Below are positions 3,414 to 38,281 of a DNA stretch of 64,000 bases, piece by piece. Position 1 is the stretch's first letter; each line of letters begins with the position of its first letter. Both the position numbers and the translations under genes were made by a program. The notes beneath the pieces are model-generated. The model was given only the letters and a program-made list of their open reading frames with translations. It made no database searches and was not told where the DNA came from. Source of the DNA: an uncultured bacterium (lineage in GTDB: Bacteria; Electryoneota; B3-LCP); assembly GCA_964623265.1 (NCBI GenBank), contig CAZUTK010000005.1, positions 746 through 64,745 of the forward strand. The letters are read 5' to 3'.

Positions 3414-3421
3414 GGTTGAAG

Positions 3422-4312
3422 ATGAAAATAGGCTACTACCCCGGTTGCACTCTGAAGTCGCACGCGAGAAATTTGGAACGATCGGCGCTGCATTCGCTGG
3501 CGGTTTTGGGCGTCGAAGTGGAAGAGCTGGAACGCTGGAACTGCTGCGGAGCCGTTTATTCGCTGGCGGACGATGATTTGATCCACATTTTGGCGCCGGT
3601 GCGGGATCTCATCCGCGCCAAAGATCAGGGTTTCGATACCGTGATGACGCTCTGTTCGATGTGCTACAACACGCTGGCTCGCGCCAATTTGTTGATGAAG
3701 CACGACGAAGTCAAGCGCAAGACCATCAACACTTTTATGGAAGAAGAGAGCGATTATTCGGGAGAAGTCGAAGTCGTTCACTTGTTGAATTATTTGCGCG
3801 ACCGCGTCGGGTGGGATAAGGTGCGAGCCGCGGTGCGCCAACCGCTGCATGGTCTGAGGCTGGCACCATACTACGGCTGCACATTGACCCGTCCCCGCGA
3901 GGTTTCCATAGATCCGGCGGTGGATCCGGTCGTGTTCAAGGATTTTGTGGAAGCGCTGGGGGCGGAATACGTGGATTTCAGCCGAGCCGCGGATTGCTGC
4001 AGCTCCTATCAGATGATTTCGAATCCGGAGGCGGCGCTGGAGACAGCCGCAGGAATCATCGCTTCCGCCGAAGAAAAGCAGGCGGAGGCTCTGGTGCTGA
4101 GCTGTCCGCTTTGCGAATATAATTTAGGACGCAGGCAGGGGGATATCATCCAGAAGCATCAGGAATTGAAGCCGCTGCCGGCCTATTATTTCACTCAGCT
4201 TCTGGCGGTCGCTCTGGGGCTGGATGCCGGGATCGCGCAATTCTCGACGCATGGAGCGAATGCTTCGGGACTGCTGGAAAAAAAGGGATTCATCAAAGCG
4301 ACTTGTCTCTGA
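3422..4312 (+). CDS. hdrB: Heterodisulfide reductase subunit B-like (CCG-domain) protein. It could equally be a type-E succinate dehydrogenase SdhE / methylmenaquinol:fumarate reductase MfrE-like subunit.
   Basis: Two Cys-rich CCG-type motifs ('WNCCGAV...CSMCYN', 'YYGCT...DCCSS...LSCPLCEYN'). Size ~297 aa. It is adjacent to the hdrC-like gene. Confidence 0.6.
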   Translation: MKIGYYPGCTLKSHARNLERSALHSLAVLGVEVEELERWNCCGAVYSLADDDLIHILAPVRDLIRAKDQGFDTVMTLCSMCYNTLARANLLMKHDEVKRKTINTFMEEESDYSGEVEVVHLLNYLRDRVGWDKVRAAVRQPLHGLRLAPYYGCTLTRPREVSIDPAVDPVVFKDFVEALGAEYVDFSRAADCCSSYQMISNPEAALETAAGIIASAEEKQAEALVLSCPLCEYNLGRRQGDIIQKHQELKPLPAYYFTQLLAVALGLDAGIAQFSTHGANASGLLEKKGFIKATCL

Positions 4313-4412: not shown

Positions 4413-5225
4413 ATGAGCGTGAAAGAAAAGGCCGTTCAGGAACCGGAAATGCCGGTGGTGCAAGAGAATTTGATCCCCATCTATATCATGGGGAAAAGAT
4501 ACGATGTGCCGGAATCCCTGACGATCATGAAGGCGATGGAGTATGCCGGATACAAGTTCATCCGCGGCGCGGGCTGCCGCGGCGGCGTCTGCGGCGCCTG
4601 CGGGACGGTGTACCGGCTGCCGGGCGACTATCACATCCGAGTCGGGCTGGCTTGCCAAACGGTGGTGATTCCCAATATGTATCTGACGCAGATTCCGTTT
4701 TATCCCGCCAACCGCGCGGTCTTCGACTGGAACAGCATCAAGGGAGAGGCGGAGGAGGTCTATAAAGCCTATCCTGAGCTGTTTCGCTGTCTGGCGTGCA
4801 ACGCCTGCTCGAAGGTTTGTCCGATGGATATCCCGGTCATGGATTACATCGCGGCGATCAAGCGCGGGGATCTGGATAAGGCGGCGGAGATTTCGTTTGA
4901 CTGCATTCAGTGCGGATTGTGCGCCACGCGCTGCATGGGGGAGATGGCGCAGTATCACATCGCGCAGATGGTGCGCCGTTTGCGGGGCCGTTTTATCTCC
5001 AAGCCCAGCGCGCATTGCGACCATCAGGTGGAAGCCATCCGGTCGGGATATTACGACGGCTACATCAACGAATTGAAGGCGTTGGGGGCAGTGGATCCCT
5101 TCGCGGCGAAAAAAGGGGATGCAAATATCGAGAAGCTGAAGAAGCTCTACAAGGAGCGGGAAGAGGAGCCGCACACCGCGGACGATCGTTGGAAACCGCA
5201 GAGCGATTACGCTCTGTTGAAATAG
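4413..5225 (+). CDS. Succinate dehydrogenase / fumarate reductase iron-sulfur subunit family protein (2Fe-2S plus two 4Fe-4S motifs).
   Basis: A 2Fe-2S motif 'GCRGGVCGACG...C'. Motifs 'CLACNACSKVCP' and 'CIQCGLCATRC'. It is followed by the flavoprotein gene. Confidence 0.6.
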   Translation: MSVKEKAVQEPEMPVVQENLIPIYIMGKRYDVPESLTIMKAMEYAGYKFIRGAGCRGGVCGACGTVYRLPGDYHIRVGLACQTVVIPNMYLTQIPFYPANRAVFDWNSIKGEAEEVYKAYPELFRCLACNACSKVCPMDIPVMDYIAAIKRGDLDKAAEISFDCIQCGLCATRCMGEMAQYHIAQMVRRLRGRFISKPSAHCDHQVEAIRSGYYDGYINELKALGAVDPFAAKKGDANIEKLKKLYKEREEEPHTADDRWKPQSDYALLK

Positions 5226-5314
5226 GAAGACGTTGGACCGGCGCAGACCGCGCCGCACCGGCTGAGCTGCGAAGGGAGAATCAAGCCGGCGAAATTGAGA
5301 GGAAACGAGGAGAA

Positions 5315-6988
5315 ATGGGCTATCCGGACGGATTAAAGCAGTTGATCAAGAGGGTGGAAGCGACCCGCCCCGAGCGGATCGCACGCAAGAAAGCCGGTCA
5401 GGAGTTTCCGGCGTTGAGCTTGGAAGATCGGCACAAGGTGTTGCACGCTTTTCACCCGGATGTCAAGGAAGAGGGGCGCCGGGAAATCACGGTGGGTCCG
5501 AATAAGGGGTACCGAATCTGCCATGAGATGGTGGATTTGCTGGAGGCGCGCAGCCGCGTCAATCCGGATAAGATTGACCTGACGCGTTGGGATTATGAAA
5601 CGGATGTTCTGGTGATCGGCGGCGGCGGCGCCGGCACGGCTGCAGCTCTGCTGGCTCAGGAACAAGGCGCCAAGGTGATCATCGCCACCAAGCTGCGCCA
5701 CGGCGACGCCAATACGATGATGGCGGAAGGCGGCATCCAAGCCGCCACGAAAGGGTGGAAGGATTCGCCTTACTATCACTACTTGGACGTGATGGGCGGG
5801 GGCCACTTCACCAATGTGCCGGAATTGGTGGAGAAGCTGGTCACGGAAGCGCCGGACGTCATCCGCTGGCTGCTGTCGCTGGGCTGCAACTTCAGCAAAT
5901 ATGAAGACGGCACTCTCCAGACGATGCACGGGGGCGGCACCTGCCGCAAACGGATGCATTTCGCGGCGGATATCACCGGCGCGGAAATGATGCGCACCAT
6001 CCGGGACGAAGCCCGCAACCGCGTGAAGGATATCACCGTGCTGGAATTTTCGCCCGCCGTGGAATTGATTCTGAACGATAAGGGTCGCTGCGCCGGCGCG
6101 GTGCTTTACAATATGGAAACCGCCGAATACATCATCGTAAAGGCGAAATCGGTGGTGATGGCGACCGGCGGTAGCGGCAGGCTGCACGTGCAGAATTTCA
6201 TGACCACCAACCACTATGGCGCCACCGCCGACGGGATTGTCCTGGGCTATCGAGCCGGCGTTCCGGTTTGCTTTCTGCACACCATCCAATACCATCCCAC
6301 AGGCGTCATTTATCCGGAACAGGCGGAAGGCATCCTAATAACGGAGAAGTTCCGCGGCGCCGGAGCCAATCTGGTCAACGTGGACGGCGAACAGTTCGTA
6401 TTCGAACGGGAGCCTCGGGACATTGAAGCCGCCTGCATCATCCGCGAATGCGTGGAGCGGGGCAAAGGCGTGCCCACTCCGACCGGCAAGTTCGGGGTCT
6501 GGCTGGACAGCCCCATGCTGGATTTGATGTTCGGTTCGGGATATGTGAAGAAGGAGTTCCCCGGCAAGCACATCTTGTACAGCCGGTTCGGCATTGACAT
6601 CGGCAAGGAACCGATGCTGATTTACCCCACGCTGCACTATCAGAACGGCGGACTGGAGTTCAAGGCGGACGGTTCGACCCGCATTCCAGGATTGTTTGTA
6701 GCCGGGGAAGTCGGCGGAGGCGTGCACGGGGAGAACCGGCTGATGGGCAATTCCCTGCTGGACATCATGGTCTTCGGGCGCATCGCGGGGACCAGCGCCG
6801 GAAAGTATGCGCTGAATGATTTTCAGGATGGAAAGCTCACGTTGGATCACGTCAGAAAATATCACCAGGAATTAGAAAAAGCGGGAGTCGGACAGGATCG
6901 CATCGCGCCGATGCTGCTGCCGGATTATACGCTGGAGCACGTCAAGGCGAAGCAGTTGACGGCGCATTACGAGGGCACGCTTCGCTAA
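5315..6988 (+). CDS. Fumarate reductase / succinate dehydrogenase flavoprotein-like subunit, non-covalent FAD type.
   Basis: 'DVLVIGGGGAGTAAA' dinucleotide fold. 'NTMMAEGG' has Asn where SdhA carries the covalent-FAD His ('SHTVAAQGG'). 'YHPTG' active-site motif. Start chosen at ATG 5315 with RBS 'gaggag', so the annotated 4910 start that overlaps the upstream gene is rejected. Confidence 0.65.
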   Translation: MGYPDGLKQLIKRVEATRPERIARKKAGQEFPALSLEDRHKVLHAFHPDVKEEGRREITVGPNKGYRICHEMVDLLEARSRVNPDKIDLTRWDYETDVLVIGGGGAGTAAALLAQEQGAKVIIATKLRHGDANTMMAEGGIQAATKGWKDSPYYHYLDVMGGGHFTNVPELVEKLVTEAPDVIRWLLSLGCNFSKYEDGTLQTMHGGGTCRKRMHFAADITGAEMMRTIRDEARNRVKDITVLEFSPAVELILNDKGRCAGAVLYNMETAEYIIVKAKSVVMATGGSGRLHVQNFMTTNHYGATADGIVLGYRAGVPVCFLHTIQYHPTGVIYPEQAEGILITEKFRGAGANLVNVDGEQFVFEREPRDIEAACIIRECVERGKGVPTPTGKFGVWLDSPMLDLMFGSGYVKKEFPGKHILYSRFGIDIGKEPMLIYPTLHYQNGGLEFKADGSTRIPGLFVAGEVGGGVHGENRLMGNSLLDIMVFGRIAGTSAGKYALNDFQDGKLTLDHVRKYHQELEKAGVGQDRIAPMLLPDYTLEHVKAKQLTAHYEGTLR

Positions 6989-7446
6989 ATGAATGCGAGT
7001 CGCGGGATGGTGCCGCGGCGTCGCAATAAAAACAATACAAATGATTTGTTTTTATTGTCAGGATAATTGTTATAATTATATCAATATATGAAGCTGCAGG
7101 AGAATTCATTCCGAGGCGAGGCGTGGAGAAGCTCAATCCCGAAGAACAGGACGGAACGATCGGGCGACGGCAGTGCGGCATTCCGGAGAAAGGGGTGCTC
7201 TTCCTCGTCTCTACGCCCCATCCAGCGGCTCTCTGCCTTCCCTTGCCTGCGAACTGCAGACGACTTCCGGATGAACTGCAACTTCTTTTGTGATACGAAG
7301 TCTGCAAGGACTTCAACGGACGTTGAAAAAACAGCATCTTCCTGTTGAAATTCACCCGGAAATTGCATATATTGCAGGGAGACAAATAAAAATATTCACA
7401 ATACTTGTTATGATGTTAACAAAGAAGATAAAAAGAAAGTGGCGAC

Positions 7447-8988
7447 ATGGCATCCCTGAATGAACAGACCACCGTTCAGACTGAAAGAGAAAAGCCACGC
7501 GACGCTGTGGAATCCTCTCGTTCGTTCAACTTGCAGGTCATCGCGAAGAAGTTGGATTGGAAGAGAGGGTTCTTCATTTTTTTGGGTCTGGCGCTTTTCT
7601 TGGCGGTTTATTGCGCGCCGCCTTTTGCGGATGCTGTAGATCCTCAGGGAAAGCATTTCGTCCTCTCTCAGGAAGGGAAAGCCGCATTGGGGCTCTTCCT
7701 GCTGGCTTCCACCTGGTGGATTTTCGAGGTGGTTCCGATCGGCGTGACGGGGATCCTCATCGGAGTTGTGCAGGCGCTGTTTCTCATCCGCAAAGCGGAC
7801 GTCGCGTTCAGCAATTTCTTCGATCCGTCGGTCTGGTTCATCTTCGCTTCGCTGGTCATCGGCAGGACCTTTACTAAAAGCGGGCTGACGCAGCGTATGG
7901 CGTATAATATGCTGGTGATGGTCGGCGAGAAGACCAGCATGATCTATCTGGGGTGTTTTGCGCTGATCGCGCTGCTCACGCTGCTGATGGCTCACACCGC
8001 CGTAGCCGCCACGGTCTATCCGCTTCTGGCGGCGATTTATTCCTTGTATCAGGAGGACAACCAGCCCACCCGTTTCGGCAAGGGGTTGTTCATCGGGATG
8101 GCGTTCGTGGCTGGGGCCGGCAGCATCGTGACGCTGTTGGGCGCCGCTCGCGGCGCCGTCGCCATCGGCTTCTTCAAGGATATGGCGGGACGGGAGATTT
8201 CGTTTGCGGAGTACACCTATTACCAGCTCCCCATCGGATGGATTATGGTTCTGCTGCTTTGGGCGTTTTTCATGATCTTCTTCAAGCCAGAGCGGAAGAC
8301 CATCCCGGGACTGCGCGAACGGGCGAGAGGGCTGGCGGCACGGCTGGGTCCGATGAAGAAGGTGGAATGGCAGACTCTGATCATCGTTCTGGCGGCGATT
8401 CTCATTCTCAGCCTGAGGTCTTTTATACCCGCCTTGATGCCGTTGGACAAGACGGGCATCATTCTGGTGACCACGCTGCTATTTTTCCTTCTGAAGATTC
8501 TGACGCTGCAGGATCTGGAGGAGATTCCTTGGAACATCATATTGCTTTTTGGCGGAGCGATGAGCATCGGCTTTTGCCTCTGGCAGACGGGGGCGGCAAG
8601 CTGGCTGGCTGTGCATTGGTTGACTTTGTTCCAACATGCGCACTGGTTTCTCTTCATCATGGGCATCGCCTTTTTCGTGTTGATCATGACCAATTTCATT
8701 ATGAATGTGGCGGCGATCGCCATTTCGATGCCGATCGCTCTGGTGATCGCTCCCTACCTTGGTGTAGCGCCGGAAATCGTGCTCTTCGCTTCCCTGGTGA
8801 CGGCGGGTATGCCCTTTATGTTGTTGATCGGGGCGGCGCCCAACGCCATAGCCTACGAGAGCAGACAATTCACATCTGCTGAATTTTTGCGCGCCGGGAT
8901 CGTCGCCAGCGTCTTGCTCCTGCTGGTGTTGGGAGTATTCATTCTGGTGATCTGGCCTCTGATGGGGATGCCGGTTCTGGCGAAGTGA
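7447..8988 (+). CDS. Anion permease of the ArsB/NhaD superfamily (DASS/SLC13-like); likely a di/tricarboxylate or other anion transporter.
   Basis: Multi-TM protein of 513 aa. The C-terminal hairpin motif 'GAAPNAIAY' is paralogous to the permease domain of the 11317 gene ('GTPNNAIAF'). It sits at the head of the signalling operon. Confidence 0.55.
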   Translation: MASLNEQTTVQTEREKPRDAVESSRSFNLQVIAKKLDWKRGFFIFLGLALFLAVYCAPPFADAVDPQGKHFVLSQEGKAALGLFLLASTWWIFEVVPIGVTGILIGVVQALFLIRKADVAFSNFFDPSVWFIFASLVIGRTFTKSGLTQRMAYNMLVMVGEKTSMIYLGCFALIALLTLLMAHTAVAATVYPLLAAIYSLYQEDNQPTRFGKGLFIGMAFVAGAGSIVTLLGAARGAVAIGFFKDMAGREISFAEYTYYQLPIGWIMVLLLWAFFMIFFKPERKTIPGLRERARGLAARLGPMKKVEWQTLIIVLAAILILSLRSFIPALMPLDKTGIILVTTLLFFLLKILTLQDLEEIPWNIILLFGGAMSIGFCLWQTGAASWLAVHWLTLFQHAHWFLFIMGIAFFVLIMTNFIMNVAAIAISMPIALVIAPYLGVAPEIVLFASLVTAGMPFMLLIGAAPNAIAYESRQFTSAEFLRAGIVASVLLLLVLGVFILVIWPLMGMPVLAK

Positions 8989-9024: not shown

Positions 9025-10707
9025 ATGGCGGAAGAATCGAAAAACACCGCGACGGCGGGCGGCAGGATCCTCCGGGATCGGTATTATCGGGAACTGCTGC
9101 GCAAGAATCTGTTGCGTCTGGCGTTCACCTATCTCGCCCCTCTCGTTCTCCTGACCATCTATTTTTACGCGCAATATGTGAATATATCCCGGGAGAGCCG
9201 GGCGCACCATCTGAAATCCGTGGCGGAGCATCAGGCGAATACTCTGGATCTGTTTTTGAATGAGCGCGTCGTCAATCTCGCCAATTTGATTGACGATCCC
9301 AAGTTGAAGATTCCGCCAACCGGCGGCGCGATGGAAGTGATGCTGCACCAGTTGAAGAAAAACAGCGATACATTCACGGATGTGGGTTTTTTCGATTCGA
9401 CCGGCGTGCAGCTCGCCTACGAAGGTCCCTTGCCTTTTTTGGAGAACCGAAATTATTCCACGGAACCGTGGTTCGTCCGCTTGCGGGGGAAGGACGATCA
9501 CTTCATCATTACGGATAACTATCTCGGATTCCGGCAAAAGCCGCATTTCACGATTGCGGTGAGCCGCGAAATTCAGAATCGCTACGTGGTATTGCGCGCG
9601 ACGTTGGATCCGCAGAAGTTTTATGAATACGTCATTGCGCAAGAAGGCTTGAGCGATGTGGATTTGTCGGTGGTCAACCGCGATGGGATCTATCAATTGG
9701 TGTCGCCGAAGATCGGGCTGCCGTTGGAGAGCTCATCGGTAGTGCCGCCGTTGTCGCCGCGCCTGGGCTGGTTGAATTCCCGCGGGGAAGCGAACTCGGG
9801 GGAATTCGCTTACGCCTGGCTGCGGAACGCGGATTGGGCGGTCATCGCCAGACCCTCTGGAGAGAGCGAAAAGATTCCTCTGTTCAGCAGCCGAATGGGG
9901 ATTCTAGTCTTTTCCGCCGTGATCATTTTCGGCGTGCTGTCCGTGATCGTCATCCGTTCGAAGAAGCTGGTGGAGCTGCAGATTGAGAAGGAGATTACCA
10001 AGGCGCAGTTCGAACATGCCGCCAAGCTGGCGTCCGTGGGGGAGTTGTCCGCCGGCATCGCGCACGAGATCAACAATCCGCTGGCGATCATCGCGGAAGA
10101 GGTCGGATTGATCAAAGACCTGATGAATCCGGAGTTCAAGACGGGCACCGCCTTCGAGGATTTAAAGCCTCACCTCGACAACATCCACGACGCGGTCTTC
10201 CGTTGTCGCGACATCACCCGCAAGCTGCTGAGTTTCGTGCGCAAGACGGACATCAAGCTGAAGCCGCACCACATCAATATGTTGATTGACGAAATCGTGG
10301 ATGCCTTCTGGATACGCGAGATGGAAGTATCCAACATCGTCATAGAGAAGAGATACGCCGCGGATCTGCCGGAGATCGTTACGGACGGGAATCAGCTCAA
10401 GCAGATCTTTTTGAACATTCTGAATAACGCCGCGGACGCAATCACTCCGCCCGGAAAGATTACGATATCCACCTCCTATGCGGATGACCACATCTCCGTC
10501 GCCATCTCGGATACAGGCAAGGGCATCACTCAGGAACAGATGGAGAAGATTTTTCTTCCGTTTTATACGACCAAGGAACCGGGGAAGGGCACCGGTTTAG
10601 GGCTGTCGGTGAGCTACGGGATCGTGAAGAGTCTGGGGGGGAAGATCCTGGTCGAAAGCATTCCGGGGAAGGGGAGCGTTTTCACGGTGGTGCTGCCGGT
10701 AAAATAG
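9025..10707 (+). CDS. Sensor histidine kinase with a periplasmic Cache-like domain between two TM helices.
   Basis: H-box 'AGIAHEINNPLAII', N/G-box region 'LNILNNAADA...DTGKGI...GTGLGLSV'. Two hydrophobic segments flank a ~250 aa extracytoplasmic domain. Paralog of the 15285 kinase. Confidence 0.8.
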   Translation: MAEESKNTATAGGRILRDRYYRELLRKNLLRLAFTYLAPLVLLTIYFYAQYVNISRESRAHHLKSVAEHQANTLDLFLNERVVNLANLIDDPKLKIPPTGGAMEVMLHQLKKNSDTFTDVGFFDSTGVQLAYEGPLPFLENRNYSTEPWFVRLRGKDDHFIITDNYLGFRQKPHFTIAVSREIQNRYVVLRATLDPQKFYEYVIAQEGLSDVDLSVVNRDGIYQLVSPKIGLPLESSSVVPPLSPRLGWLNSRGEANSGEFAYAWLRNADWAVIARPSGESEKIPLFSSRMGILVFSAVIIFGVLSVIVIRSKKLVELQIEKEITKAQFEHAAKLASVGELSAGIAHEINNPLAIIAEEVGLIKDLMNPEFKTGTAFEDLKPHLDNIHDAVFRCRDITRKLLSFVRKTDIKLKPHHINMLIDEIVDAFWIREMEVSNIVIEKRYAADLPEIVTDGNQLKQIFLNILNNAADAITPPGKITISTSYADDHISVAISDTGKGITQEQMEKIFLPFYTTKEPGKGTGLGLSVSYGIVKSLGGKILVESIPGKGSVFTVVLPVK

Positions 10708-10736: not shown

Positions 10737-11312
10737 ATGGCATTGGAGAGAGTGAAAGATATCATGTTGTCTCTGGACGACTACGCCGTCGTGGGGATGG
10801 AAGCCACGATGGTGGATGCGTTGTGCGCTCTGGAGGCGGCGCAGAAGAAACTTCCGCCGGATCGCCAGCCCCATCGCGCCGTTCTGGTGGTGGACGACAA
10901 GGGCAACATCGTCGGGAAGTTGGGGCATCTGGCATTCTTGAAGGGACTGGAGCCGAAATACGACAAGATCGGCGACATCAACGTGCTTTCCCGCGTCGGA
11001 CTCAGCCAGGAATTCATCAATTCCATGCTGGACAATCTGAGTCTCTGGAAGGAGAGCTTTGAGGATTACGTGCAGCGGGCTCGCAGGACGAAGGTGAAAG
11101 ATGTGATGCACTCGGTTGTAGAGAGCATCTCAGAAGACGCGCCGTTAAGCGAAGCGGTGCATAAACTGGTCATGTATCAGACCCTATCCCTGCTTGTCAC
11201 TCGGGGCGAAAAGGTCGTTGGGATATTGCGGCTGTCCGATCTCTTTTCCGTGATCGCGCATATCATTCGGAAGAAAGTTGGCTGCGGTGAAGAAACAAGC
11301 CAGGAGAAGTGA
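10737..11312 (+). CDS. CBS-pair domain protein (stand-alone).
   Basis: Two CBS-like repeats across ~190 aa. No other domain is evident. Confidence 0.5.
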   Translation: MALERVKDIMLSLDDYAVVGMEATMVDALCALEAAQKKLPPDRQPHRAVLVVDDKGNIVGKLGHLAFLKGLEPKYDKIGDINVLSRVGLSQEFINSMLDNLSLWKESFEDYVQRARRTKVKDVMHSVVESISEDAPLSEAVHKLVMYQTLSLLVTRGEKVVGILRLSDLFSVIAHIIRKKVGCGEETSQEK

Positions 11313-11316
11313 CCCT

Positions 11317-13389
11317 ATGCCGAAAGTGCTGCTAATTGATGATGAGGACAAGTTTCGGACGTCCCTTGCCGACCGCCTCAAACTGCGAGGATATGCGAAC
11401 ATCGCCTTGAACAGCGGTACGGACGTCGTCAAAATCATCCGCAAGGATCCTGAGATTGATGTTGTGGTGCTCGATCGTCAAATGCCGGGCATCAGCGGGG
11501 AGCAGGTATTGCGAGAGATCAAGCAATACCGTCCCGAGTTGCAGGTCATTATGCTGACGGGGTACGGCAGTGTGGCGTCGGCTATGGAAACCGGGCGTCT
11601 GGGCGCTTTCGCCTACCTCGAGAAGCCCTGCGATTTCGACCAGTTGATCGAAACGATCGAGCGGGCGCGCAAGGACAAGGCGCGTGTGCTGGAGAAATAC
11701 GAGATCGCTGAAATCCAGAAGGATTCCCTCCTGAAATGGTGCTGGGGCAGACACAATTACCGTCCGGGGATCATCCTGTTGGGCGTTCTGATTTTCGCCG
11801 CAACGATTCTGATGCCCACTCCGCGCAGGCTGATCGAGATTCTCTCCACTCCGAAGCGGGCTCAAGTTCTAAATCCCACGACGGGCAAGATGGTGGATGA
11901 TCCCAGCGATCCGATCACCGGCTATGCGAGTTTCCGGAAGATGAAGGCGGGGGAGTCCATCGCCGAGTACTACAGTCGTTCCAATAAGCTGGAGAAGACC
12001 GTCAGGGACGAATTCGGCAAGAAGGTGGAGGTGCGCACTCTGACCGCGCAGGAAGCCGCCGTGAAGGCGAAAGTGATGCTGGGGACGCTCTTCGTGGCGG
12101 CGCTTTTCTGGGCGACGGGCGCCATTCCCATCGGCATCACCGCGCTGGTGGTGGGCGTCTCGATGTACTTCATGGGCGTGATGCAGCCGGATGACATTGC
12201 ACAGGCGTACGCCAAGGATGCGGTGATCTTCATCTTCGGGGTGCTGGCGGTGGCGATCGCCATCAGCAAATCCGGTCTGGACAAACGCATCGGGCTATTG
12301 CTGCTGGGACCTTCTAAATCGCTGCCGCGATTGATGTTCTTGTTCCTGCCTATGATTGGGATCGCCTGTTCCTTCCTCTCGGAACACGCGCTGGTGGCGT
12401 TCATCATGCCGCTTTTTATGTTCGTCTACGCAGCTTCCGTGCGGGAGGCGGGGGTCGAGGAGGACGCGCCTCTTGCGGTGATGCTGGTGCTGTCGCTCTG
12501 TTTCGCCGCCAACTGCGGCGGGCCCGGCTCGCCGGCGGCCGGGGGGAGAAACGCCGTGATGGTGGCGATTCTAAGTGATTACGGGGTGGCGCCGTCTTTC
12601 GCGCAGTGGGTGAAATTGGGTCTGCCCTATGTGCCGGTGATGTCGCTGGTCATCGCCACATACTTTTTTCTCGTATTTCGGGGGAAAATCAAGGCGAAGA
12701 AGTTGAATGTCTCCTCGATGGTCAAGCAGGCGGCGGCGAAGATCGGGCCGATGAATCGAAATGAATACATCACCGCCGTGATTCTGATCTTGTTGATCAC
12801 CCTCTGGATCACCGCCAGCGATAAGCTGGGGATGGGCGGTCCAGTGATCCTGGCGCTGGTGCTCTTGAATATTTTCCGGATCGTCACTTGGGGGGACATC
12901 ACCAAGATCCACTGGGAAGTCGTGGCGCTGTACGCCAGCGCCAGCGCAATGGGTAAGGGGCTTGCCGTCACCGGTGCGGCTCTGTTCATGGCGGATGTGT
13001 TCGTCGGGTGGTTGCCGGAATTTCTGCGGACCGGTACAGGATTGGCAGTCGCCAGCAGCATCTTCACAGGGATCACCACTCAGTTTATGAGTGACGGGGC
13101 GACGGTATCCGCCATCGGGCCGGTGGTGGTGCCGATGGCGACGCTGACGGGCACGCACCCTTGGATGGTGGGCTTGGGGGCGGCGTTCGCTTCGTCTTTC
13201 GCGCATATGATGATCATCGGCACACCCAACAACGCCATCGCCTTCACGATGGCAAGAGACCCGGTCACCGGCAAGCAGTTGGTGACATTAGGGGATTTCT
13301 TCAAGCATGGCTTTGTCGTCCTGCTGCTATCCTGGGCGGTGCTCTGGATCTGGCTGTTCTACGGGTACTGGCGCTGGATCGGGTTTTAA
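11317..13389 (+). CDS. Fusion of an N-terminal response-regulator receiver domain to a C-terminal ArsB/NhaD-superfamily (DASS-like) anion permease.
   Basis: REC motifs 'KVLLIDDE', 'VVVLDRQMPGISG', 'IMLTGYGS', 'AYLEKP' in the first ~125 aa, then ~560 aa with 10+ hydrophobic segments ending in 'IIGTPNNAIAF'. The ATG at 11317 has RBS 'caggagaag' and lies directly after the upstream stop. Confidence 0.7.
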   Translation: MPKVLLIDDEDKFRTSLADRLKLRGYANIALNSGTDVVKIIRKDPEIDVVVLDRQMPGISGEQVLREIKQYRPELQVIMLTGYGSVASAMETGRLGAFAYLEKPCDFDQLIETIERARKDKARVLEKYEIAEIQKDSLLKWCWGRHNYRPGIILLGVLIFAATILMPTPRRLIEILSTPKRAQVLNPTTGKMVDDPSDPITGYASFRKMKAGESIAEYYSRSNKLEKTVRDEFGKKVEVRTLTAQEAAVKAKVMLGTLFVAALFWATGAIPIGITALVVGVSMYFMGVMQPDDIAQAYAKDAVIFIFGVLAVAIAISKSGLDKRIGLLLLGPSKSLPRLMFLFLPMIGIACSFLSEHALVAFIMPLFMFVYAASVREAGVEEDAPLAVMLVLSLCFAANCGGPGSPAAGGRNAVMVAILSDYGVAPSFAQWVKLGLPYVPVMSLVIATYFFLVFRGKIKAKKLNVSSMVKQAAAKIGPMNRNEYITAVILILLITLWITASDKLGMGGPVILALVLLNIFRIVTWGDITKIHWEVVALYASASAMGKGLAVTGAALFMADVFVGWLPEFLRTGTGLAVASSIFTGITTQFMSDGATVSAIGPVVVPMATLTGTHPWMVGLGAAFASSFAHMMIIGTPNNAIAFTMARDPVTGKQLVTLGDFFKHGFVVLLLSWAVLWIWLFYGYWRWIGF

Positions 13390-13406: not shown

Positions 13407-13895
13407 ATGCCGGACAAAATCAAACTGCTCATCGTGGACGATGAGGTGAAATTTCTCGATTCCATCGCACAACGTTTGGAGATGCGCGGGCTGCATGTGA
13501 CCAAGGCGAGCAACGGGCAGGACGCCGTGCAATTCGCCCGCAATCAGAAGTTCGATCTGGCGCTGCTCGATCTGAAGATGCCCGGGATGGACGGCAAGCA
13601 GGTGCTGGAAATCCTGAAGAAGGAACACAAGCACATCGAGGTCATCATCTTGACGGGGCACGGATCGCTGGAATCCGCCGTGGAATGCACGAAGCTAGGC
13701 GCCTACGGATATCTTCCCAAACCCTATGAGCTCGACAGTCTGCTGGAGATTCTGAAAGAAGCCTATGAAGCCCGCCTGAAGAAGAAATTCGAGTTCGATC
13801 AGGAGAGGATGGAGAAGATTATGAAGCTGGCGACCGGCAGCAGCCCACTGGGTATCCTGCGATCTCTGCGGGAACTGGATGATGACGAAAAATAA
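13407..13895 (+). CDS. Stand-alone response regulator receiver (CheY-like) protein.
   Basis: 'KLLIVDDE', 'LALLDLKMPGMDG', 'IILTGHGS', 'YLPKP'. There is no output domain. Confidence 0.8.
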   Translation: MPDKIKLLIVDDEVKFLDSIAQRLEMRGLHVTKASNGQDAVQFARNQKFDLALLDLKMPGMDGKQVLEILKKEHKHIEVIILTGHGSLESAVECTKLGAYGYLPKPYELDSLLEILKEAYEARLKKKFEFDQERMEKIMKLATGSSPLGILRSLRELDDDEK

Positions 13896-14028: not shown

Positions 14029-15288
14029 ATGGCGGTCATAGCTCTGTTCAGCGGATCCTACTGCCACGGCGAAGAGGCGGCGGAAGCCCTGGCGAAAAAA
14101 CTGGGATATCCGTGTATCGAAAAGCAGGTGCTCGCCGAGACGGCTAGCCGGTACTCTCTGTCAGCGGACAAGATTCAGAGGGCGATTCAAGGTCCTCCGC
14201 CGCTTTTCGCCTCCAAATATCATCGGGAAAGGACGGTGATACTGTCCCGTTTGAAAGCGGTGCTGGCGGAATTCATCCAGCCGGATCGGGTGATCTGCCA
14301 TGGGTGTCTGAGCCATCTGATTTCCCGGGACATCACTCATGTCCTGCGGGTGCTCCTCATCGCCAATCAGGATTACCGCGTGCAGACGGCGATGACCGCC
14401 GCGAAACTCTCCCGAAAAGAGGCGGTCAAGCAGATCAAGAAGGACGATGAGGCGAAGGCGCAGTGGACGCAGTTGTTGTTCGAAAAAGCGCCTTGGGATC
14501 CGAGCCTTTACGATATCGTGCTCCCCATGCATGAGACTTCGGTTGAGGAGGCGGTTCGGATTATCGCCGAAAACAGCGCTAAAGAGGCCGTAGCGACGAC
14601 TTCGCAATCTCGGCAAGCCGCCGCGGATTTTCTGCTTCAAGCCCGCGTTGAAACGGCGCTGGGCGAAAAAAGCGACGGGCTGGAAATCCGGTGCACGGAC
14701 GGGCAGGTTACACTTGTGATCAACAAGACCGTCCTGCGGCTGGATCCATTTCAGGAAGAAATCCGGCAGATCGCTGCTGCGGTTCCCGGAGTGAGAAAGG
14801 TGGAGACGAAAGTGGGTCCGAAGTTCAATCAGCCCAGCATCATCCGCGATGTGGATCTCGAGTTGCCGAAGAAGGTTCTTCTGGTGGACGACGAAGTCGA
14901 GTTCGTGCATACTCTTTCGGAGCGGTTGCAGACCCGCAATCTGGGATCGTCCGTCGTGTACGACGGGGAGCAGGCGCTGAATTTCGTCGCCACGGAGGAG
15001 CCCGAAGTGATGGTGCTGGATTTGAAGATGCCCGGGATTGACGGCATTGAAGTTCTGCGCCGGGTCAAGCACGACCATCCCAATGTGGAGGTGATTATCC
15101 TGACGGGACACGGATCGGAGCGGGAGGAGGCGTTGGCGAAGGAGCTGGGGGCTTTTGCTTATCTCCATAAGCCCGTCAACATTGACGTGCTGGCGAAGAC
15201 GATGAAGGAAGCCTATCGCAGGATCAGCGAGAAGAAGGCGTCCGCGGGCGGTGAATCCGGGAAGAGCTCCGCGAATTCGTCATCGTGA
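14029..15288 (+). CDS. Three-part fusion: cytidylate-kinase-like family N-terminal domain with a degenerate P-loop, a BON-like middle segment, and a C-terminal REC domain.
   Basis: N-terminal 'IALFSGSYCHGEEAAEALAKKLGYPCIEKQVL' resembles the Cytidylate_kin2 family but lacks the GxxGxGK/GSGG P-loop. C-terminal 'KVLLVDDE...VMVLDLKMPGIDG...IILTGHGS...YLHKP' is a REC domain. Confidence 0.55.
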   Translation: MAVIALFSGSYCHGEEAAEALAKKLGYPCIEKQVLAETASRYSLSADKIQRAIQGPPPLFASKYHRERTVILSRLKAVLAEFIQPDRVICHGCLSHLISRDITHVLRVLLIANQDYRVQTAMTAAKLSRKEAVKQIKKDDEAKAQWTQLLFEKAPWDPSLYDIVLPMHETSVEEAVRIIAENSAKEAVATTSQSRQAAADFLLQARVETALGEKSDGLEIRCTDGQVTLVINKTVLRLDPFQEEIRQIAAAVPGVRKVETKVGPKFNQPSIIRDVDLELPKKVLLVDDEVEFVHTLSERLQTRNLGSSVVYDGEQALNFVATEEPEVMVLDLKMPGIDGIEVLRRVKHDHPNVEVIILTGHGSEREEALAKELGAFAYLHKPVNIDVLAKTMKEAYRRISEKKASAGGESGKSSANSSS

Positions 15289-16997
15289 GTCAACCTATGC
15301 CTTTCGCATCCGCGCAAAGAGACGATTCCGCCGCCGAGAAATCGGTGCACGGCGAACAGACGCGCTACCGTCGGCTGTGGTGGTATTCCGTGATCCTGAT
15401 GGCGCTGGTTTCGCTGACGCCGCTGGTCATCCTGACCTTCGTCAACATCCACCAGGCGCAGAAAGCCATCCGCGAGGAGATGCGTTTCCCCATCGCGCGG
15501 CTGTTGTCCAATACCAAGAAGGCGCTGGAGTTCGTGATTGCGGAGCGGAAATCCGCTCTGCGGCTGGTCATCAGCGAAAAAGCATATGAGGAGCTGGCGA
15601 GCGATGAGGGGCTGGCGCAGGCTTTCAATAACCTGAAGGAATCGTTCGGCGGGTTCGTGGATCTCGGGCTGGTGGATGCAGATGGCAATCAGAATTTCTA
15701 CGTTGGACCCTATGACCTGAAAGGCAAGAACTACCGGGACCAAGCCTGGCTGCACGAAGTGCGACTGCGCGACGTGTACGTCAGCGACGTCTTTATGGGC
15801 TTCCGGAATTTTCCTCACTTCATCATCGCCGTCAAGCAGAACTCCGCGCGTGGCGGATCTTACGTCCTGCGCGCGACGATTGATATGCACCTTCTCAACC
15901 AGCAGATCACCGCTCTGGATCTGGGACCTTCCAGCGACGTTTTCATCGTCAACGCCGACGGTATCCTGCAGACCAATTCCCGCTTCCACGGCAAGATTCT
16001 CGAACCCTGCACGATCCCGCTTCCCAAGTATTCCGACACCGAAATGATCCAGGAGTTTACCGAGAAGGGTCAATCTTTTCTTCTGGGCTACGCGTTCATC
16101 GAAAAATCGCCGTTCATTCTGATGATCATCCAGAATCAGAAGGATTTGATGCCGAACTGGCTCGCCCGCCGGCAGGATCCCTTCTGGTTTCTGGCGGGCA
16201 GCAGCGTTCTGATTTTGCTGGTTGTACTGGGGGTTTCCACCTATACGGTGCATCGGATCCGCAGCGCCGACATCCGCCGGGCGAAGGCGTTTCACAATCT
16301 GGAATATACGAACAAGATGGCGTCCATCGGGAGACTCGCCGCCAGCGTGGCGCATGAGATCAACAACCCCATCGCCATCATCAATGAGAAAGCCGGATTG
16401 CTGAAGGATATGGCGACCCTGACGCCTGATTTCACGCAACGCGAGAAGGTGCTGAAATTGTTGGATTCCATCCACAATTCGGTGGAACGTGTCAGCACCA
16501 TCACGCATCGTCTGCTGGGATTTTCCCGGCGGATGAACGCGCACATGGAGCTGATTGACCTGCCGTCTTTGCTGAAGGAAGTCCTGAGTTTTCTGGGCAA
16601 GGAGCTGAGCCATCGCAACGTTTCCGTCACCTTCGAGGTTCCGGATAATTTTCCGGCGGTGGAAAGCGACCGCGGGCAACTGCAGCAAGTGTTCCTGAAT
16701 ATCATCAACAATGCGATCGCCGCGATCAAGGAAGGCGGCTGGATCCGATTCACTCTGCTGGAGGTGGAGGCGGGCGGGGTGGCGGTGAAAATCTGCGACA
16801 ACGGCACAGGGATTTCCCCGGAGGATCTGAAACACATCTTCGAGCCTTTCTTCTCCACCAAGGGGGAATTCGGCACAGGACTGGGTCTTTCCATCACCTA
16901 TGACATCATCAAGAAGCTGGGGGGGGAAATTCAGGTGGAGAGTCAGCTGGGGAAGGGAACCTGTTTCACAATCTTATTGCCGCGTCAGAAGGCTTAA
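15285..16997 (+). CDS. Sensor histidine kinase with a Cache-like periplasmic domain; paralog of the 9025 kinase.
   Basis: 'ASVAHEINNPIAII' H-box, 'LNIINNAIAA...DNGTGI...GTGLGLSI' ATPase motifs, TM helices 'LWWYSVILMALVSLTPLVIL' and 'FWFLAGSSVLILLVVLGV'. GTG start overlaps the upstream stop. Confidence 0.8.
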   Translation: MSQPMPFASAQRDDSAAEKSVHGEQTRYRRLWWYSVILMALVSLTPLVILTFVNIHQAQKAIREEMRFPIARLLSNTKKALEFVIAERKSALRLVISEKAYEELASDEGLAQAFNNLKESFGGFVDLGLVDADGNQNFYVGPYDLKGKNYRDQAWLHEVRLRDVYVSDVFMGFRNFPHFIIAVKQNSARGGSYVLRATIDMHLLNQQITALDLGPSSDVFIVNADGILQTNSRFHGKILEPCTIPLPKYSDTEMIQEFTEKGQSFLLGYAFIEKSPFILMIIQNQKDLMPNWLARRQDPFWFLAGSSVLILLVVLGVSTYTVHRIRSADIRRAKAFHNLEYTNKMASIGRLAASVAHEINNPIAIINEKAGLLKDMATLTPDFTQREKVLKLLDSIHNSVERVSTITHRLLGFSRRMNAHMELIDLPSLLKEVLSFLGKELSHRNVSVTFEVPDNFPAVESDRGQLQQVFLNIINNAIAAIKEGGWIRFTLLEVEAGGVAVKICDNGTGISPEDLKHIFEPFFSTKGEFGTGLGLSITYDIIKKLGGEIQVESQLGKGTCFTILLPRQKA

Positions 16998-17010: not shown

Positions 17011-17382
17011 ATGCAGAAAATCCGCGTCCTGTTGATTGACGATGAAGAGGAATTGGTTTCCACGCTGGTGGAACGTCTGGATATCCGCGGCGTGCAGGCG
17101 GAGTGCGTCACCAACGGGACGGAGGCGTTCGCACGATTGCGGGAGTCGTCTTTCGATGCAGCGGTTATTGATTTGAAGTTGCCGGGGATGAGCGGCATTG
17201 ATGTGATGAAGAGGATCAAATCGGAGCACCCTGAAATGGTCATCCTGTTGACCACCGGTCACGGATCCGTCAGCGAAGAGCACGAGGGAATTCCGCCGGA
17301 AGCCGCAGATGTTCTTTACAAGCCGATTGACATCGAAGTCCTCGTATCTAAATTGAAAAGCTCTCTGCGGGAGGGGAAGTGA
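17011..17382 (+). CDS. Stand-alone response regulator receiver protein.
   Basis: 'RVLLIDDE', 'AAVIDLKLPGMSG', 'ILLTTGHGS', 'LYKP'. 123 aa. Confidence 0.75.
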   Translation: MQKIRVLLIDDEEELVSTLVERLDIRGVQAECVTNGTEAFARLRESSFDAAVIDLKLPGMSGIDVMKRIKSEHPEMVILLTTGHGSVSEEHEGIPPEAADVLYKPIDIEVLVSKLKSSLREGK

Positions 17383-18071
17383 CGGAATCGAAGGCGAGAG
17401 AATGGCTTAACGAGCGCGGACTGGCGTTTTTCGGGAAGATCACCGCCAGCGTCACTCATGAGTTGAACAACGTGATGTCCATCATCGAGCAGGTTTCCGG
17501 GTTGCTGGACGACCTCTGCGCGGGTGCCGAGAGCGGCAGGCCGCTGGAGCCCGAGAAAATCCGGGGGATTTCCGAGCGGATCGGCAAACAAGTGGAACGC
17601 GGGGTGAGTATCATTCAGAGGATGAACAAGTTCGCTCACAGTGTGGACGAACCGGTCAAGAACTTCGACCTCGTTGAGCTGACGGAGAATCTCGTGGAGT
17701 TGTCGCGGCGATTCGCGGGATTGCGCAAGCTGAAGATCGAGTGGCGCCCCCCCGATGCTCGCGTGATGCTTGTAAGCAAGCCCTTCCTGCTGGAGCAGGT
17801 TATTTTCATGGGGATAGATGCGGCGATGCAGAGGTCCCGCCGGGAGGGTGTGATCCGGATCGAGGTCCAGCCGGATGCTGCGGGGGCGCGCGTCGGGATC
17901 TCGACGGAGGCGGAAGCCGACGCGGAGACCGGGATTCCGGATGCGACGGATTCCGATTTTGCGGCGTTACTCTGCGCCGAACTGGCGGCGGATCTGAAAG
18001 CCGGCGCGGCGAACGGGAAATGGAACTGGGAACTTCTGCTTCCTAATTTCAGCGCGGAGGTATCGAAATGA
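17379..18071 (+). CDS. Histidine-kinase-like protein with an intact H-box but a degenerate or absent ATP-binding catalytic domain. Candidate phosphotransfer or phosphatase module.
   Basis: 'ITASVTHELNNVMSII' DHp H-box. The downstream region lacks N, G1 (DxGxG) and G2 (GxGLGL) motifs. There is no TM segment. It overlaps the flanking genes by 4 nt on each side. Confidence 0.5.
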   Translation: MTESKAREWLNERGLAFFGKITASVTHELNNVMSIIEQVSGLLDDLCAGAESGRPLEPEKIRGISERIGKQVERGVSIIQRMNKFAHSVDEPVKNFDLVELTENLVELSRRFAGLRKLKIEWRPPDARVMLVSKPFLLEQVIFMGIDAAMQRSRREGVIRIEVQPDAAGARVGISTEAEADAETGIPDATDSDFAALLCAELAADLKAGAANGKWNWELLLPNFSAEVSK

Positions 18072-18499
18072 GCGATGGAAAAGTGCTGCTGGTGGATGAC
18101 GAGATCGAGTTCACGCAGGCTCTGGCGGAAAGGCTGGAGACGCGGGGGCTGAAGGTGGATGCCGTCAGCAGCGGAAAGGATGCTCTGCAGAAAGCGAAGG
18201 GGGGATCCTACGACGCGGTTTTTCTGGATTTGGCGATGCCGGAAATGGACGGCATCGAAACGCTGAAGAGACTTCTGGCGGAGAATCCCGATCTGCAAGT
18301 GGTGTTGTTGACCGGCCATGCGACGGTGCAGTCGGGGATTCAGGCGGTCAAGCAGGGAGCGATGGATTTTCTGGAGAAGCCCGCCAAGCTGGATGTCATC
18401 CTGGAGAAGATCAAGCAGGCGAAGACCAACCGGATTCTCCTGATCGAGAAGCAGAGCGAAGAGAAGATCAAAAAGATCATGGGGAAGATGGGCTGGTGA
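18068..18499 (+). CDS. Stand-alone response regulator receiver protein.
   Basis: 'KVLLVDDE', 'AVFLDLAMPEMDG', 'VLLTGHAT', 'FLEKP'. Confidence 0.8.
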   Translation: MSDGKVLLVDDEIEFTQALAERLETRGLKVDAVSSGKDALQKAKGGSYDAVFLDLAMPEMDGIETLKRLLAENPDLQVVLLTGHATVQSGIQAVKQGAMDFLEKPAKLDVILEKIKQAKTNRILLIEKQSEEKIKKIMGKMGW

Positions 18500-23797: not shown

Positions 23798-25093
23798 CTA
23801 CGGTTCAAAGACGATGCGATATTGTTGATCCTTCCAAGGGATCAGAATCATGCGATAGACGGCGAAATCCAGCGCAGCGCAATCGGCGGCGAATTGGACG
23901 ATCGGCTCGTACGCGCCGGAGAAAATCATTCCTTTCCGCACAATGTTGTGCCTCTCGGCTAATTCGTAGATCTGCTCGGAGTTCGGCGGGCTTTGCGATT
24001 GCGGCGCGGATTCCGATTCGATCTTTCCGCAAATCGTGCCGATTCTGCCGCCGCGGAGACGCGCGGCGCTCTGCTTTGAGCCGACGGTGATTCCGGGCAA
24101 CTGCTCGACTTTCCTGAATATGCTCTCCATTTCAGCGGAATCCGGCGCAGAGATCTCGAGCAGGAAATAGCCGGCGGTGAAGGAGAGGAGATCAAATGTT
24201 CGGCGGTCAACGGCTTTGCCCAGAATTTCCTGCAACAGAGCCATTCTTCCGCTCATTCCGGTCCAGGTCTGCGCGGAGGAAGGTTGAGTCGGCGGCACGG
24301 GAGTTTCCGCAGGCGGGGAAGCCGGCTCTTCTACGGGTGCAGGTTCGGGACTTTCTGGCTGCCGCTGTTGCGGGAGAGTTGCTTCTTCCTGCGGCGGGTG
24401 AAGGGGCGCAGACGGCTTTTCTCGGGTGGAACGCCACCAGAAGAAGCCGATCAGCACGACGACGGCGGCGACGAGCAGCGCGGGCAGGAACCAGGCAGGC
24501 TGATCCGCGCTGCGGGGGCGCCGCGGCTTCCGTTCTTCGATCGGCTCGGTTTCCACCATAGGTTTGCGGCGCGGTGCCGTCGGTGGAACGGGCGTTCGCG
24601 TCAAGTTGATGGCGGTGTAAGGGGCTTCCTGGAAAAAGACGCCGCGCAGGGTAAACCCGGATTCATGCACCGTCTGGCGGATGGCGTCGAGCAGGCGTTT
24701 GCGAATGACGGCGACGTGTATGTCGCCATCTTCTTCGATGCGGTAATTATACTGGTATTGTCCGATGTTTTCGAGGAGGTTCTTCGACAGCTCCCAGAGG
24801 AGATGTTCCTCTAATTCCGCATCCTGCAGGAAGGGATCCTGCAATTTAAGCGTGTGCCCCCACGCCGCAGGAATCAGGACATCCACTTCATTTTGTTCCG
24901 CGACTCCGCGAGCCTGCAGATTCGCCAGAATGGAGCTGAATCGCCTGCGGTGCTCATCCGAAGTCAACGCCAGGGGGGTGAGCTTAAAATCGAGCTTTTC
25001 TTCTGCTAATACGCGCTCTTCCGCTGTTTCGCCGCCTTCTGATTTCAGGAGAAGAGCGACTTCCCCCGTCTGCCATCTCAGTTGAAGTGGCAT
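23798..25093 (-). CDS. Hypothetical bitopic membrane protein with a proline-rich periplasmic linker.
   Basis: A single TM 'WFLPALLVAAVVVLIGFFWW' followed by Pro/Glu-rich low complexity. Start chosen at ATG (MPLQLRW) with RBS 'gggag'. No recognisable catalytic motif. Confidence 0.4.
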   Translation of the reverse strand: MPLQLRWQTGEVALLLKSEGGETAEERVLAEEKLDFKLTPLALTSDEHRRRFSSILANLQARGVAEQNEVDVLIPAAWGHTLKLQDPFLQDAELEEHLLWELSKNLLENIGQYQYNYRIEEDGDIHVAVIRKRLLDAIRQTVHESGFTLRGVFFQEAPYTAINLTRTPVPPTAPRRKPMVETEPIEERKPRRPRSADQPAWFLPALLVAAVVVLIGFFWWRSTREKPSAPLHPPQEEATLPQQRQPESPEPAPVEEPASPPAETPVPPTQPSSAQTWTGMSGRMALLQEILGKAVDRRTFDLLSFTAGYFLLEISAPDSAEMESIFRKVEQLPGITVGSKQSAARLRGGRIGTICGKIESESAPQSQSPPNSEQIYELAERHNIVRKGMIFSGAYEPIVQFAADCAALDFAVYRMILIPWKDQQYRIVFEP

Positions 25094-25136
25094 AATCGGC
25101 TCCCGTGACAGGTAACGCCTTCCTGCAGAGTCGGAA

Positions 25137-38090: not shown

Positions 38091-38281
38091 GAGAGCAGAG
38101 CCCTTCCTTTAGGGCAGTATGAAACGCGAACTTTCCCTTTGAATTTCGGGCGGTTTGATTTATATTTGGGAACAAAGCACTCGCAACGAGAGTCGAACCC
38201 TCGGAAGTTTGAACTATGGCATGGCGGTTTTTGATCCGAAGAAACTGGATCTTTCGCTAACCGGATCTGGTGGAGAAGCCG

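Follow-up and report, generated by a model that had tools for sequence, protein, structure and literature searches.

What does a protein do in which a cytidylate-kinase-like domain is followed by a small BON domain and by a receiver for phosphorylation (REC)? The gene that raises this question lies at positions 14029..15288 on the forward strand of a 64,000-nucleotide (nt) stretch of contig CAZUTK010000005.1 from an uncultured bacterium, hereafter called the window, and encodes a response regulator of 419 residues with the domain order Cytidylate_kin2-like, BON and REC, as recognized from its open reading frame (ORF), Pfam matches, an AlphaFold2 model and homologs. It is a real signalling protein, in which the kinase-like domain has a disabled ATP loop and is joined to BON and a receiver. 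Because members of its family are almost always encoded beside sulfate-type transporters and a phosphorelay, the protein probably switches transport rather than genes. More specifically, we give about an even chance to its being a phospho-controlled, non-catalytic accessory regulator within a phosphorelay that is devoted to a secondary transporter of anions, probably of sulfate. The most informative evidence is the conserved operon of transporter and phosphorelay genes, which was absent from the original prediction for this gene.

The ORF starts with ATG, and a ribosome-binding site, GGGGAGAGG, ends 6 nt 5' of it. The AlphaFold2 model, built with an input of 30 homologs, is confident (mean predicted local distance difference test score, pLDDT, 86) and arranges the chain as a P-loop-kinase-like domain to about residue 185, a BON-type segment (192-262), a linker and a (beta-alpha)5 receiver. 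NCBIfam returned only a receiver match and no whole-protein model, and a Foldseek search of the PDB with the whole protein retrieved only REC domains, with query TM-scores of at most 0.30. A chance origin of the three-domain feature is excluded, because more than 120 full-length homologs (about 410 residues, 51-88% identity, all with PF13189 and PF00072) were found by a word-indexed search, and at least 514 species genomes encode confirmed relatives when one genome per GTDB species is scanned. The source names of the full-length homologs include Syntrophales, Zixibacteria, Bacteroidota, Abyssobacteria and Acidobacteriota. The species relatives listed are mostly Desulfobacterota, with other carriers in Zixibacteria, Ignavibacteria, Myxococcota, Acidobacteriota, Planctomycetota, Nitrospirota, Chloroflexi and a few Proteobacteria; the carriers include the cultured Desulfosarcina widdelii PP31, and one locus comes from a metagenome-assembled genome labelled Desulfosudis oleivorans. 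The kinase-like and BON part alone matched 1,588 cluster representatives at E <= 1e-3, and the best 150 of these comprise, among others, 52 REC-fused and 61 stand-alone forms (about 270 residues). One seemingly close stand-alone form, P0121 (289 residues), was rejected, since the contig stops at its end and the gene is probably a REC-fused one cut short. Far from being rare, the architecture belongs to a large, widespread and uncharacterised family. The original prediction, which called the coupling unusual and proposed a search for the same fusion, therefore holds only relative to characterised regulators; regulators combining REC with a cytidylate-kinase-like domain were not found in the searched literature, and the pairing of BON with PF13189 was already among eight major BON architectures in a study of DolP (bioRxiv 10.1101/2020.08.10.244616).

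The genomic setting of the family was assessed in 85 loci fetched from GTDB species genomes, with denominators that differ by question. A SulP or DASS transporter gene lies directly upstream of the target-family gene on the same strand in 45 of 61 loci (43 of them SulP; median gap 21 bp), and some SulP or DASS gene is present in 42 of 44. Directly downstream, a dCache histidine kinase is encoded in 49 of 54 loci (median gap 36 bp, with several 4-nt overlaps), and a gene for a 230-residue histidine-phosphotransferase-like (HPT-like) protein is found in 47 of 54. The order SulP, target, kinase, REC, 230-residue protein, REC occurs in loci from Acidobacteriota (L003), Syntrophales (L005) and other lineages, while other loci keep the core from target to REC and have the transporter elsewhere or swapped for DASS and CBS genes. 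In the window, where gene identities come from Pfam searches of the ORFs and all cluster genes are on the forward strand, the target stop codon overlaps by 4 nt (GTGA) the start of a dCache-HisKA-HATPase sensor histidine kinase with an intact kinase core (15285..16997), whose sensor domain has no sequence relative among solved structures. The kinase gene is followed by the single-domain receiver REC_A (17011..17382), conserved between the kinase and HPT-like genes, then by the HPT-like gene (17379..18071) and by a further single-domain receiver, REC_B (18068..18499), recognized by Pfam, junction and synteny; the REC_A/HPT-like and HPT-like/REC_B (ATGA) junctions are also 4-nt overlaps.

The HPT-like protein aligns to the core of ZraS, comprising the dimerization and histidine phosphotransfer (DHp) and the catalytic and ATP-binding (CA) domains, and keeps the H-box (VTHELNN), whereas its N-box Asn is replaced by Asp and the G-boxes are absent. 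Across 55 orthologs, the motif F-x-G-x3-A-S-x-x-H-E-x-x-N is invariant and none of the N, G1 and G2 boxes is conserved; Pfam gave no significant match, with HisKA reaching only E 0.012. The invariant H-box combined with an unconserved ATP-binding half marks this protein, by its sequence features, as a Spo0B/ChpT-like His-phosphotransferase, and the presence of REC genes on both sides of a DHp protein that lacks a working ATP domain points to a multi-step phosphorelay, with a predicted route of phosphotransfer. The Spo0F-Spo0B-Spo0A and CckA-ChpT-CtrA/CpdR relays share the order of kinase, single REC, His-phosphotransferase and terminal receiver(s), and Spo0B and ChpT have in common with the HPT-like protein a DHp-like bundle and a degenerate ATP-binding domain. 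However, there is no sequence-level orthology to either relay, and the outputs in the window are not transcription factors. ChpT serves two alternative acceptors, a situation paralleled by the several RECs of the target cluster.

The receiver through which such a relay would act on the target occupies 14869..15246 (+). Pfam matched Response_reg to residues 283-391 (E 8.7e-25), above the curated threshold, and the model has the (beta-alpha)5 fold. In an ungapped alignment to Spo0F, D287/D288, D331 (the acceptor), T359 and K381 correspond to Spo0F D10/D11, D54, T82 and K104, and this catalytic quintet is invariant in a 30-sequence family alignment; the C-terminus is thus the complete REC domain that had been predicted. 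A linker (residues 266-280; 14824..14868, +), delimited by pLDDT and alignment, precedes it; residues 270-278 have pLDDT below 50 and are predicted to be disordered, and the linker is poorly conserved (mean pairwise identity 0.39). Among 21 genomes with all six operon parts, mean pairwise identity is 0.74 for the target REC, 0.64 for the SulP membrane domain, 0.57 for the kinase core (DHp and CA), 0.50 for REC_A, 0.51 for REC_B and 0.43 for the target N-terminal domain. Since its identity tops that of the operon, the target REC, the slowest-evolving element, is suggested to contact several partners, as a hub would. Pairing it with a partner by similarity was uninformative, because all five paralogous RECs in the window are 32-43% identical to each other.

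The N-terminal domain (residues 1-185; 14029..14583, +) belongs to PF13189, in agreement with the original prediction: Cytidylate_kin2 matches residues 3-166 strongly (E 2.6e-30; 106 bits against a gathering cut-off of 28), and the modelled fold is that of solved members. The same prediction held that the glycine and lysine residues of the P-loop were replaced, so that nucleotide-kinase activity was unlikely. In the degenerate Walker A region (residues 7-16, FSGSYCHGEE; 14047..14076, +), which was delineated from the 30-sequence alignment, the model and the P-loops of relatives, the reading is F7-S-G9-S-Y-C12-H-G14-E15-E16; both glycines of G-x4-G are retained, whereas the Walker Lys position is Glu15 and the Ser/Thr position is Glu16. 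In the model, beta1 spans residues 3-8, the loop 9-13 and alpha1 14-25. Neither the alignment nor the model offers a Walker Lys-Ser/Thr pair, K-[ST] occurring in 0 of 30 family members, and the low likelihood of nucleotide-kinase activity stands on this reading of the sequence. The best reading of these features is that the domain is a non-catalytic pseudokinase. An active, phosphorylation-regulated nucleotide or small-molecule kinase appears very improbable: acidic residues occupy positions 15 and 16, and, judging from motif order, His-Gly would stand where kinases of this fold have Asp-Gly. The Cmk Walker A motif G-x-x-G-x-G-K-[ST] was not found in the target, hhalign gave no alignment between the N-domain profile and E. 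coli Cmk (1kdo sequence; probability 0.5%), and the archaeal CMP kinase model TIGR02173 scored 17.4 bits against a cut-off of 102.1, with a match that excludes the P-loop. Cmk is presumed, from the Pfam name and clan only, to share the P-loop nucleoside monophosphate kinase fold class, and its motif order appears similar, but the target lacks its Walker A motif and any significant profile alignment to it and falls far below the cut-offs of Cmk models. An assignment of R117, D140 and D162 to Cmk sites was dropped for want of an hhalign alignment. The searched literature contained no PF13189 member with demonstrated activity and no paper on the function of one.

Comparison with relatives indicates how the loop has changed. 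The crystallised PF13189 proteins 3FDI (Eubacterium ventriosum) and 3HDT (Clostridium symbiosum, 'putative kinase') are uncharacterised structural-genomics entries of about 200-220 residues, single-domain and without BON or REC, with the P-loops IGREFGSGGH and IEREYGSGGR, so that a basic residue, His or Arg, stands at the position of target Glu15. REC-less relatives typically have ISRGSYSxGK, and the target clade FSGSYCHGE. The target does not have the P-loop typical of PF13189 (Ser12 with a basic residue 15, as GSGG[HR] or G-x4-G-K), and relative to this norm Arg8 is also changed to Ser and Ser12 to Cys; Cys12 and Glu15 therefore define a divergent subfamily inside PF13189. Residue statistics from 133 cluster representatives, including the 52 REC-fused and 61 stand-alone forms, place Cys12 in 41 of 52 REC-fused versus 11 of 61 stand-alone proteins, and Lys/Arg15 in 5 of 52 versus 29 of 61. 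The two states hardly ever coincide (55 with Cys12, 33 with Lys/Arg15, only 4 with both), a pattern that suggests a concerted switch in the chemistry of the loop rather than random decay.

The same cysteine could serve as a sensor of thiol or sulfur species, its thiolate reporting redox state, sulfide, persulfide or sulfite, an idea that is compatible with a transport-regulating role. The residue is present in all 30 members of the family alignment and in most REC-fused representatives, is nearly exclusive of the basic residue 15, and sits in the loop between beta1 and alpha1, the classical anion nest of P-loop proteins, within a context of sulfur-anion transport. On the other hand, 11 of the 52 REC-fused representatives lack it, the 30-sequence alignment has no second conserved Cys for a disulfide, and the Cys may be a mere steric stand-in for Ser, all of which leaves such a sensor improbable. 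Outside the P-loop, the core residues G92, R117, D140, W146, Y161 and D162 are near-universal in REC-fused and stand-alone forms alike, and the domain probably keeps some binding site on that account. This would suit a further possibility, in which the N-terminal module acts as an input or integrator, sensing an intracellular metabolite (such as a nucleotide, adenosine 5'-phosphosulfate (APS) or the transported anion, held by the P-loop) to tune how readily its own REC gains or loses phosphate, so that the target drains or buffers the phosphorelay instead of acting on the transporter. R117, D140, W146, Y161 and D162, being common to stand-alone relatives, suggest a conserved ligand site, and the extreme conservation of the target REC and a branched network of five paralogous RECs, two kinases and one HPT-like protein, suited to phosphate sinks, are consistent with it. 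However, this possibility leaves the BON domain unexplained, the clade no longer has the basic residue that a P-loop binding anions or phosphate would be expected to carry, and REC-less relatives lie beside transporters, so that the role of the module needs no receiver. We consider it possible but doubtful.

The middle segment (residues 192-265; 14602..14823, +) had been described as resembling either a BON or an ACT domain, and the evidence supports BON rather than ACT. The model shows a long helix followed by beta-beta-alpha-beta over residues 192-262, giving the alpha-beta-beta-alpha-beta topology, and solved BON proteins are its nearest structural neighbours. Pfam BON (PF04972) stays below its gathering score (18.6 bits versus 27, with only 18 residues matched), whereas a profile of the family matches DolP and OsmY at E 0.005-0.009 and one of the REC-less relatives matches OsmY at E 6.4e-10. 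The likeness to DolP/YraP, OsmY, BonA and Kbp consists of the fold and a weak but consistent similarity, at 21% identity to OsmY and DolP. DolP, OsmY and BonA are secreted envelope proteins, whereas the target lacks a signal peptide (residue 3 already belongs to beta1 of the kinase-like fold) and is fused to a cytoplasmic REC, which places its BON domain in the cytoplasm as well. Kbp likewise has a cytoplasmic BON domain. The BON domain of DolP can bind anionic phospholipid (PMC7806268).

The stand-alone relatives bear directly on what the N-terminal module does. Both of their domains and the domain order match the N-terminal part of the target, as do the core residues G92, R117, D140, W146, Y161, D162, D200 and G225, and, like the target, their genes lie directly 3' of anion transporter genes, with REC and dCache kinase genes nearby. 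In 40 of 65 metagenome loci, a CitMHS/TrkA_C, DASS or SulP gene is directly upstream of the stand-alone gene. They differ from the target in having no fused REC, in mostly carrying Arg8, Ser12 and Lys/Arg15, in a transporter that is mostly CitMHS/TrkA_C and not SulP, and in a second Cytidylate_kin2 gene that follows; their operon order is CitMHS/TrkA_C transporter, kinase-like-BON, second Cytidylate_kin2 protein, REC and dCache kinase. This second, shorter protein (about 260 residues) follows the stand-alone gene in 32 of 64 metagenome loci, for example at L089:7857-8633 and in many of L091-L143. REC-fused and REC-less systems adjoin on the same contig in L103, L123, L131 and L151. Since the REC-less relatives are also found beside transporters, the N-terminal module is tied to anion transporters with or without a receiver, and its transporter-related role is independent of the receiver. 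In the target, two adjacent components of a system of the REC-less type appear to have been fused. Large proteins with PPDK_N and PEP-utilizers domains (about 850 residues), resembling PEP synthase or a phosphotransferase, also recur near both kinds of system, often beside a small REC (L003:2193-7514; L089:2550-5084; L099, L109, L111, L128, L132, L135 and L164).

On the reading that the target is an accessory regulator of transport, the dCache histidine kinase would sense an extracytoplasmic small anion, probably sulfate, and would phosphorylate D331 of the target either directly or by way of REC_A and the HPT-like protein. The receivers of this relay would be the target, REC_B and, in some genomes, RECs fused to the transporter. 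Phosphorylation of D331 may alter the interaction of the flexibly tethered REC with the N-terminal module, in which the non-catalytic kinase-like domain, packed on BON, would form a transporter-associated regulatory unit. This unit would act post-translationally, binding the regulatory domain that the transporter has in the cytoplasm (STAS, or a CBS partner) and/or, via BON, the inner face of the membrane, and so tuning uptake. GlnK-AmtB and SbtB-SbtA are functional analogies only: small cytoplasmic regulators gate transporters encoded by neighbouring genes. They resemble the target in gene position, in having a nucleotide-binding-type domain and in their post-translational action, but GlnK and SbtB have the PII fold instead of a P-loop-kinase-like domain with BON and are not controlled by a His-Asp phosphorelay.

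A published counterpart to this arrangement exists in Desulfobacteraceae, where clusters of DASS and SulP transporters with Cache kinases, regulators and CBS proteins were described (Sci Adv 2025; PMC11887813). These clusters are conserved across sulfate reducers, including Desulfosarcina, their transporters were reported as abundantly formed, and a role in sulfate sensing and the regulation of sulfate uptake was proposed. The window and related loci show the same adjacency to DASS/SulP, Cache kinase and CBS genes, a likeness in the kinds of genes; the target family, unlike the published clusters, also reaches well beyond sulfate reducers. The kinase-like/BON regulator, the HPT-like protein and the REC-transporter fusions were not mentioned there, and regulators were not discussed by Marietou et al. 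2018 (PMC5840216). In the loci studied here, the conserved regulators are single RECs, REC-transporter fusions and the kinase-like-BON-REC protein, in contrast to the 'TCS response regulator, WalR type' (TCS, two-component system) label of PMC11887813, which also drew interactions of the regulators with promoters. The same paper speculates about a second level of control by which the cell would sense its internal sulfate, APS or energy state, which is in line with the metabolite-sensing, phosphate-sink possibility discussed above.

The promoter-centred model raises the question of whether the target could instead control transporter genes indirectly, through a transcription factor, a sigma factor or RNA. 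NtrC-type regulators near some loci are in keeping with this, as is a PAS histidine kinase paired with a sigma-54 (NtrC-type) regulator in the window (39918-42937, -), some 25 kb away from the cluster, the latter being the only DNA-binding regulator seen there. However, Pfam, NCBIfam and the fold search revealed no DNA- or RNA-binding domain in the target, and 121 of the 138 other REC ORFs in the loci are no longer than 180 residues. DNA-binding domains are absent from all regulators of the conserved core, and the few RECs of NtrC size are not conserved with that core. REC-transporter fusions also argue for control at the protein level; besides the REC-DASS protein of the window, four REC-SulP fusions were confirmed, as SulP-STAS-REC (L042:722-3286 and L040:5270-7858, -) and as REC-SulP-STAS (L083:7103-9904 and L085:11822-14764), and L033 is a candidate for a fifth. 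With this balance, indirect transcriptional regulation is rated as quite improbable.

Regarding the transported anion, the partner SulP scores 308 bits to the plant sulfate transporter SULTR4;1, versus about 90 each to SLC26Dg, a fumarate carrier, and BicA, a bicarbonate carrier. Similarity among DASS proteins does not separate substrates, and the relatives of DASS include dicarboxylate carriers. In the organism of the window, sulfate is a likely substrate but is not established, because the 64 kb carry no SulP and no dsr, apr or sat genes, and because they do carry genes of type IX secretion. Given the distribution of type IX secretion, these genes point to a lineage of the Fibrobacteres-Chlorobi-Bacteroidetes (FCB) type or a related one, and not to a classical deltaproteobacterial sulfate reducer. 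The type IX components and their cargo lie at 33-2675 (+), 31740-38090 (-), 44015-48172 (+) and 57861-60512 (-), and include a 2116-residue SprA-like protein, a gingipain-like C25 peptidase and C13 and S8 peptidases with Por_Secre_tail domains.

Several points weigh against the proposal that the target regulates an anion transporter. The link of the family to transport is one of guilt by association and domain logic, and what the N-terminal module binds is likewise only predicted. Zixibacteria, Ignavibacteria, Myxococcota, Planctomycetota and a few Proteobacteria, which are not labelled sulfate reducers, carry the family as well, and the window combines the lack of SulP and of dsr/apr/sat with DASS proteins whose relatives include carriers of dicarboxylates. 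Transcriptional control is conceivable in view of the NtrC-type regulators near some loci, and the regulators of the published clusters were called 'WalR type' and drawn with promoter interactions (PMC11887813). Finally, the near-universal core of the N-terminal domain may reflect ligand binding or non-canonical catalysis.

The remainder of the cluster lies upstream of the target on the same strand. It probably begins with a second DASS transporter gene (7447..8988; Pfam Na_sulph_symp, E 3.6e-48), followed by a second dCache histidine kinase (9025..10707; Pfam and tblastn), which is 32% identical to the kinase downstream of the target (tblastn), and by a CBS-pair protein (10737..11312; Pfam CBS) of a kind that recurs beside DASS genes in related loci. 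Next come the REC fused to a DASS (Na_sulph_symp/CitMHS) anion transporter (11314..13389; Pfam), whose start was taken at an internal ATG and which has VcINDY as its closest solved structure, and an extra single-domain receiver (13407..13895; Pfam Response_reg, E 1.9e-30). Beyond its receiver domain, the latter extends into about 40 charged, helical residues and, at 42% identity, is the closest of the window paralogs to the target REC. A promoter-like site at 7345-7373 precedes the DASS gene at 7447..8988, in a scan that was overall at chance level; operon limits from promoter and terminator scans were dropped, as the counts equalled the shuffled expectation. Just upstream of the cluster are genes for a CCG-domain protein (3416-4312, +) and a fumarate-reductase-like flavin adenine dinucleotide (FAD) protein (4910-6988, +), whose FAD domain begins at residue 232 after an N-terminal extension of about 230 residues; these genes do not accompany the cluster consistently in other loci. 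A link to fumarate or succinate metabolism was considered and rejected: Frd/Sdh-like genes flank the cluster in the window, L001 and L006, and on only one other contig among 86 loci. Three further ORFs, at 23798-25174 (-), 25137-26372 (-) and 38270-39265 (+), encode proteins of 458, 411 and 331 residues without a Pfam family (E <= 1e-4 or 1e-5).

Collectively, these observations bear on sulfate uptake, with which dissimilatory sulfate reduction begins; in the sea, this reduction has a major part in the cycles of carbon and sulfur. The regulation of uptake is hardly understood, and the target family offers a testable entry point, whose parts are a pseudokinase-BON protein under receiver control, a phosphorelay of four steps and transporters with receivers of their own; the fusions of REC to anion transporters may merit a study in themselves. 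A bolder extension, tentative and in its entirety rather unlikely, is that the kinase-like and BON module is a general, hitherto overlooked cytoplasmic regulatory subunit of SulP, DASS and CitMHS/TrkA_C transporters, that the REC-bearing clade gates sulfate uptake within seconds and independently of transcription in sulfate reducers and many uncultured anaerobes, and that its P-loop, now with Cys12 and with acidic residues 15 and 16, has been turned from the binding of phosphate to the sensing of a sulfur or redox signal inside the cell. Should the target be merely a phosphate sink or a minor accessory, it would still be a well-annotated member of an uncharacterised regulator family. If its output is post-translational, the promoter-centred model of these clusters would need revision, and the family would provide a first functional handle on PF13189 and on cytoplasmic BON domains.

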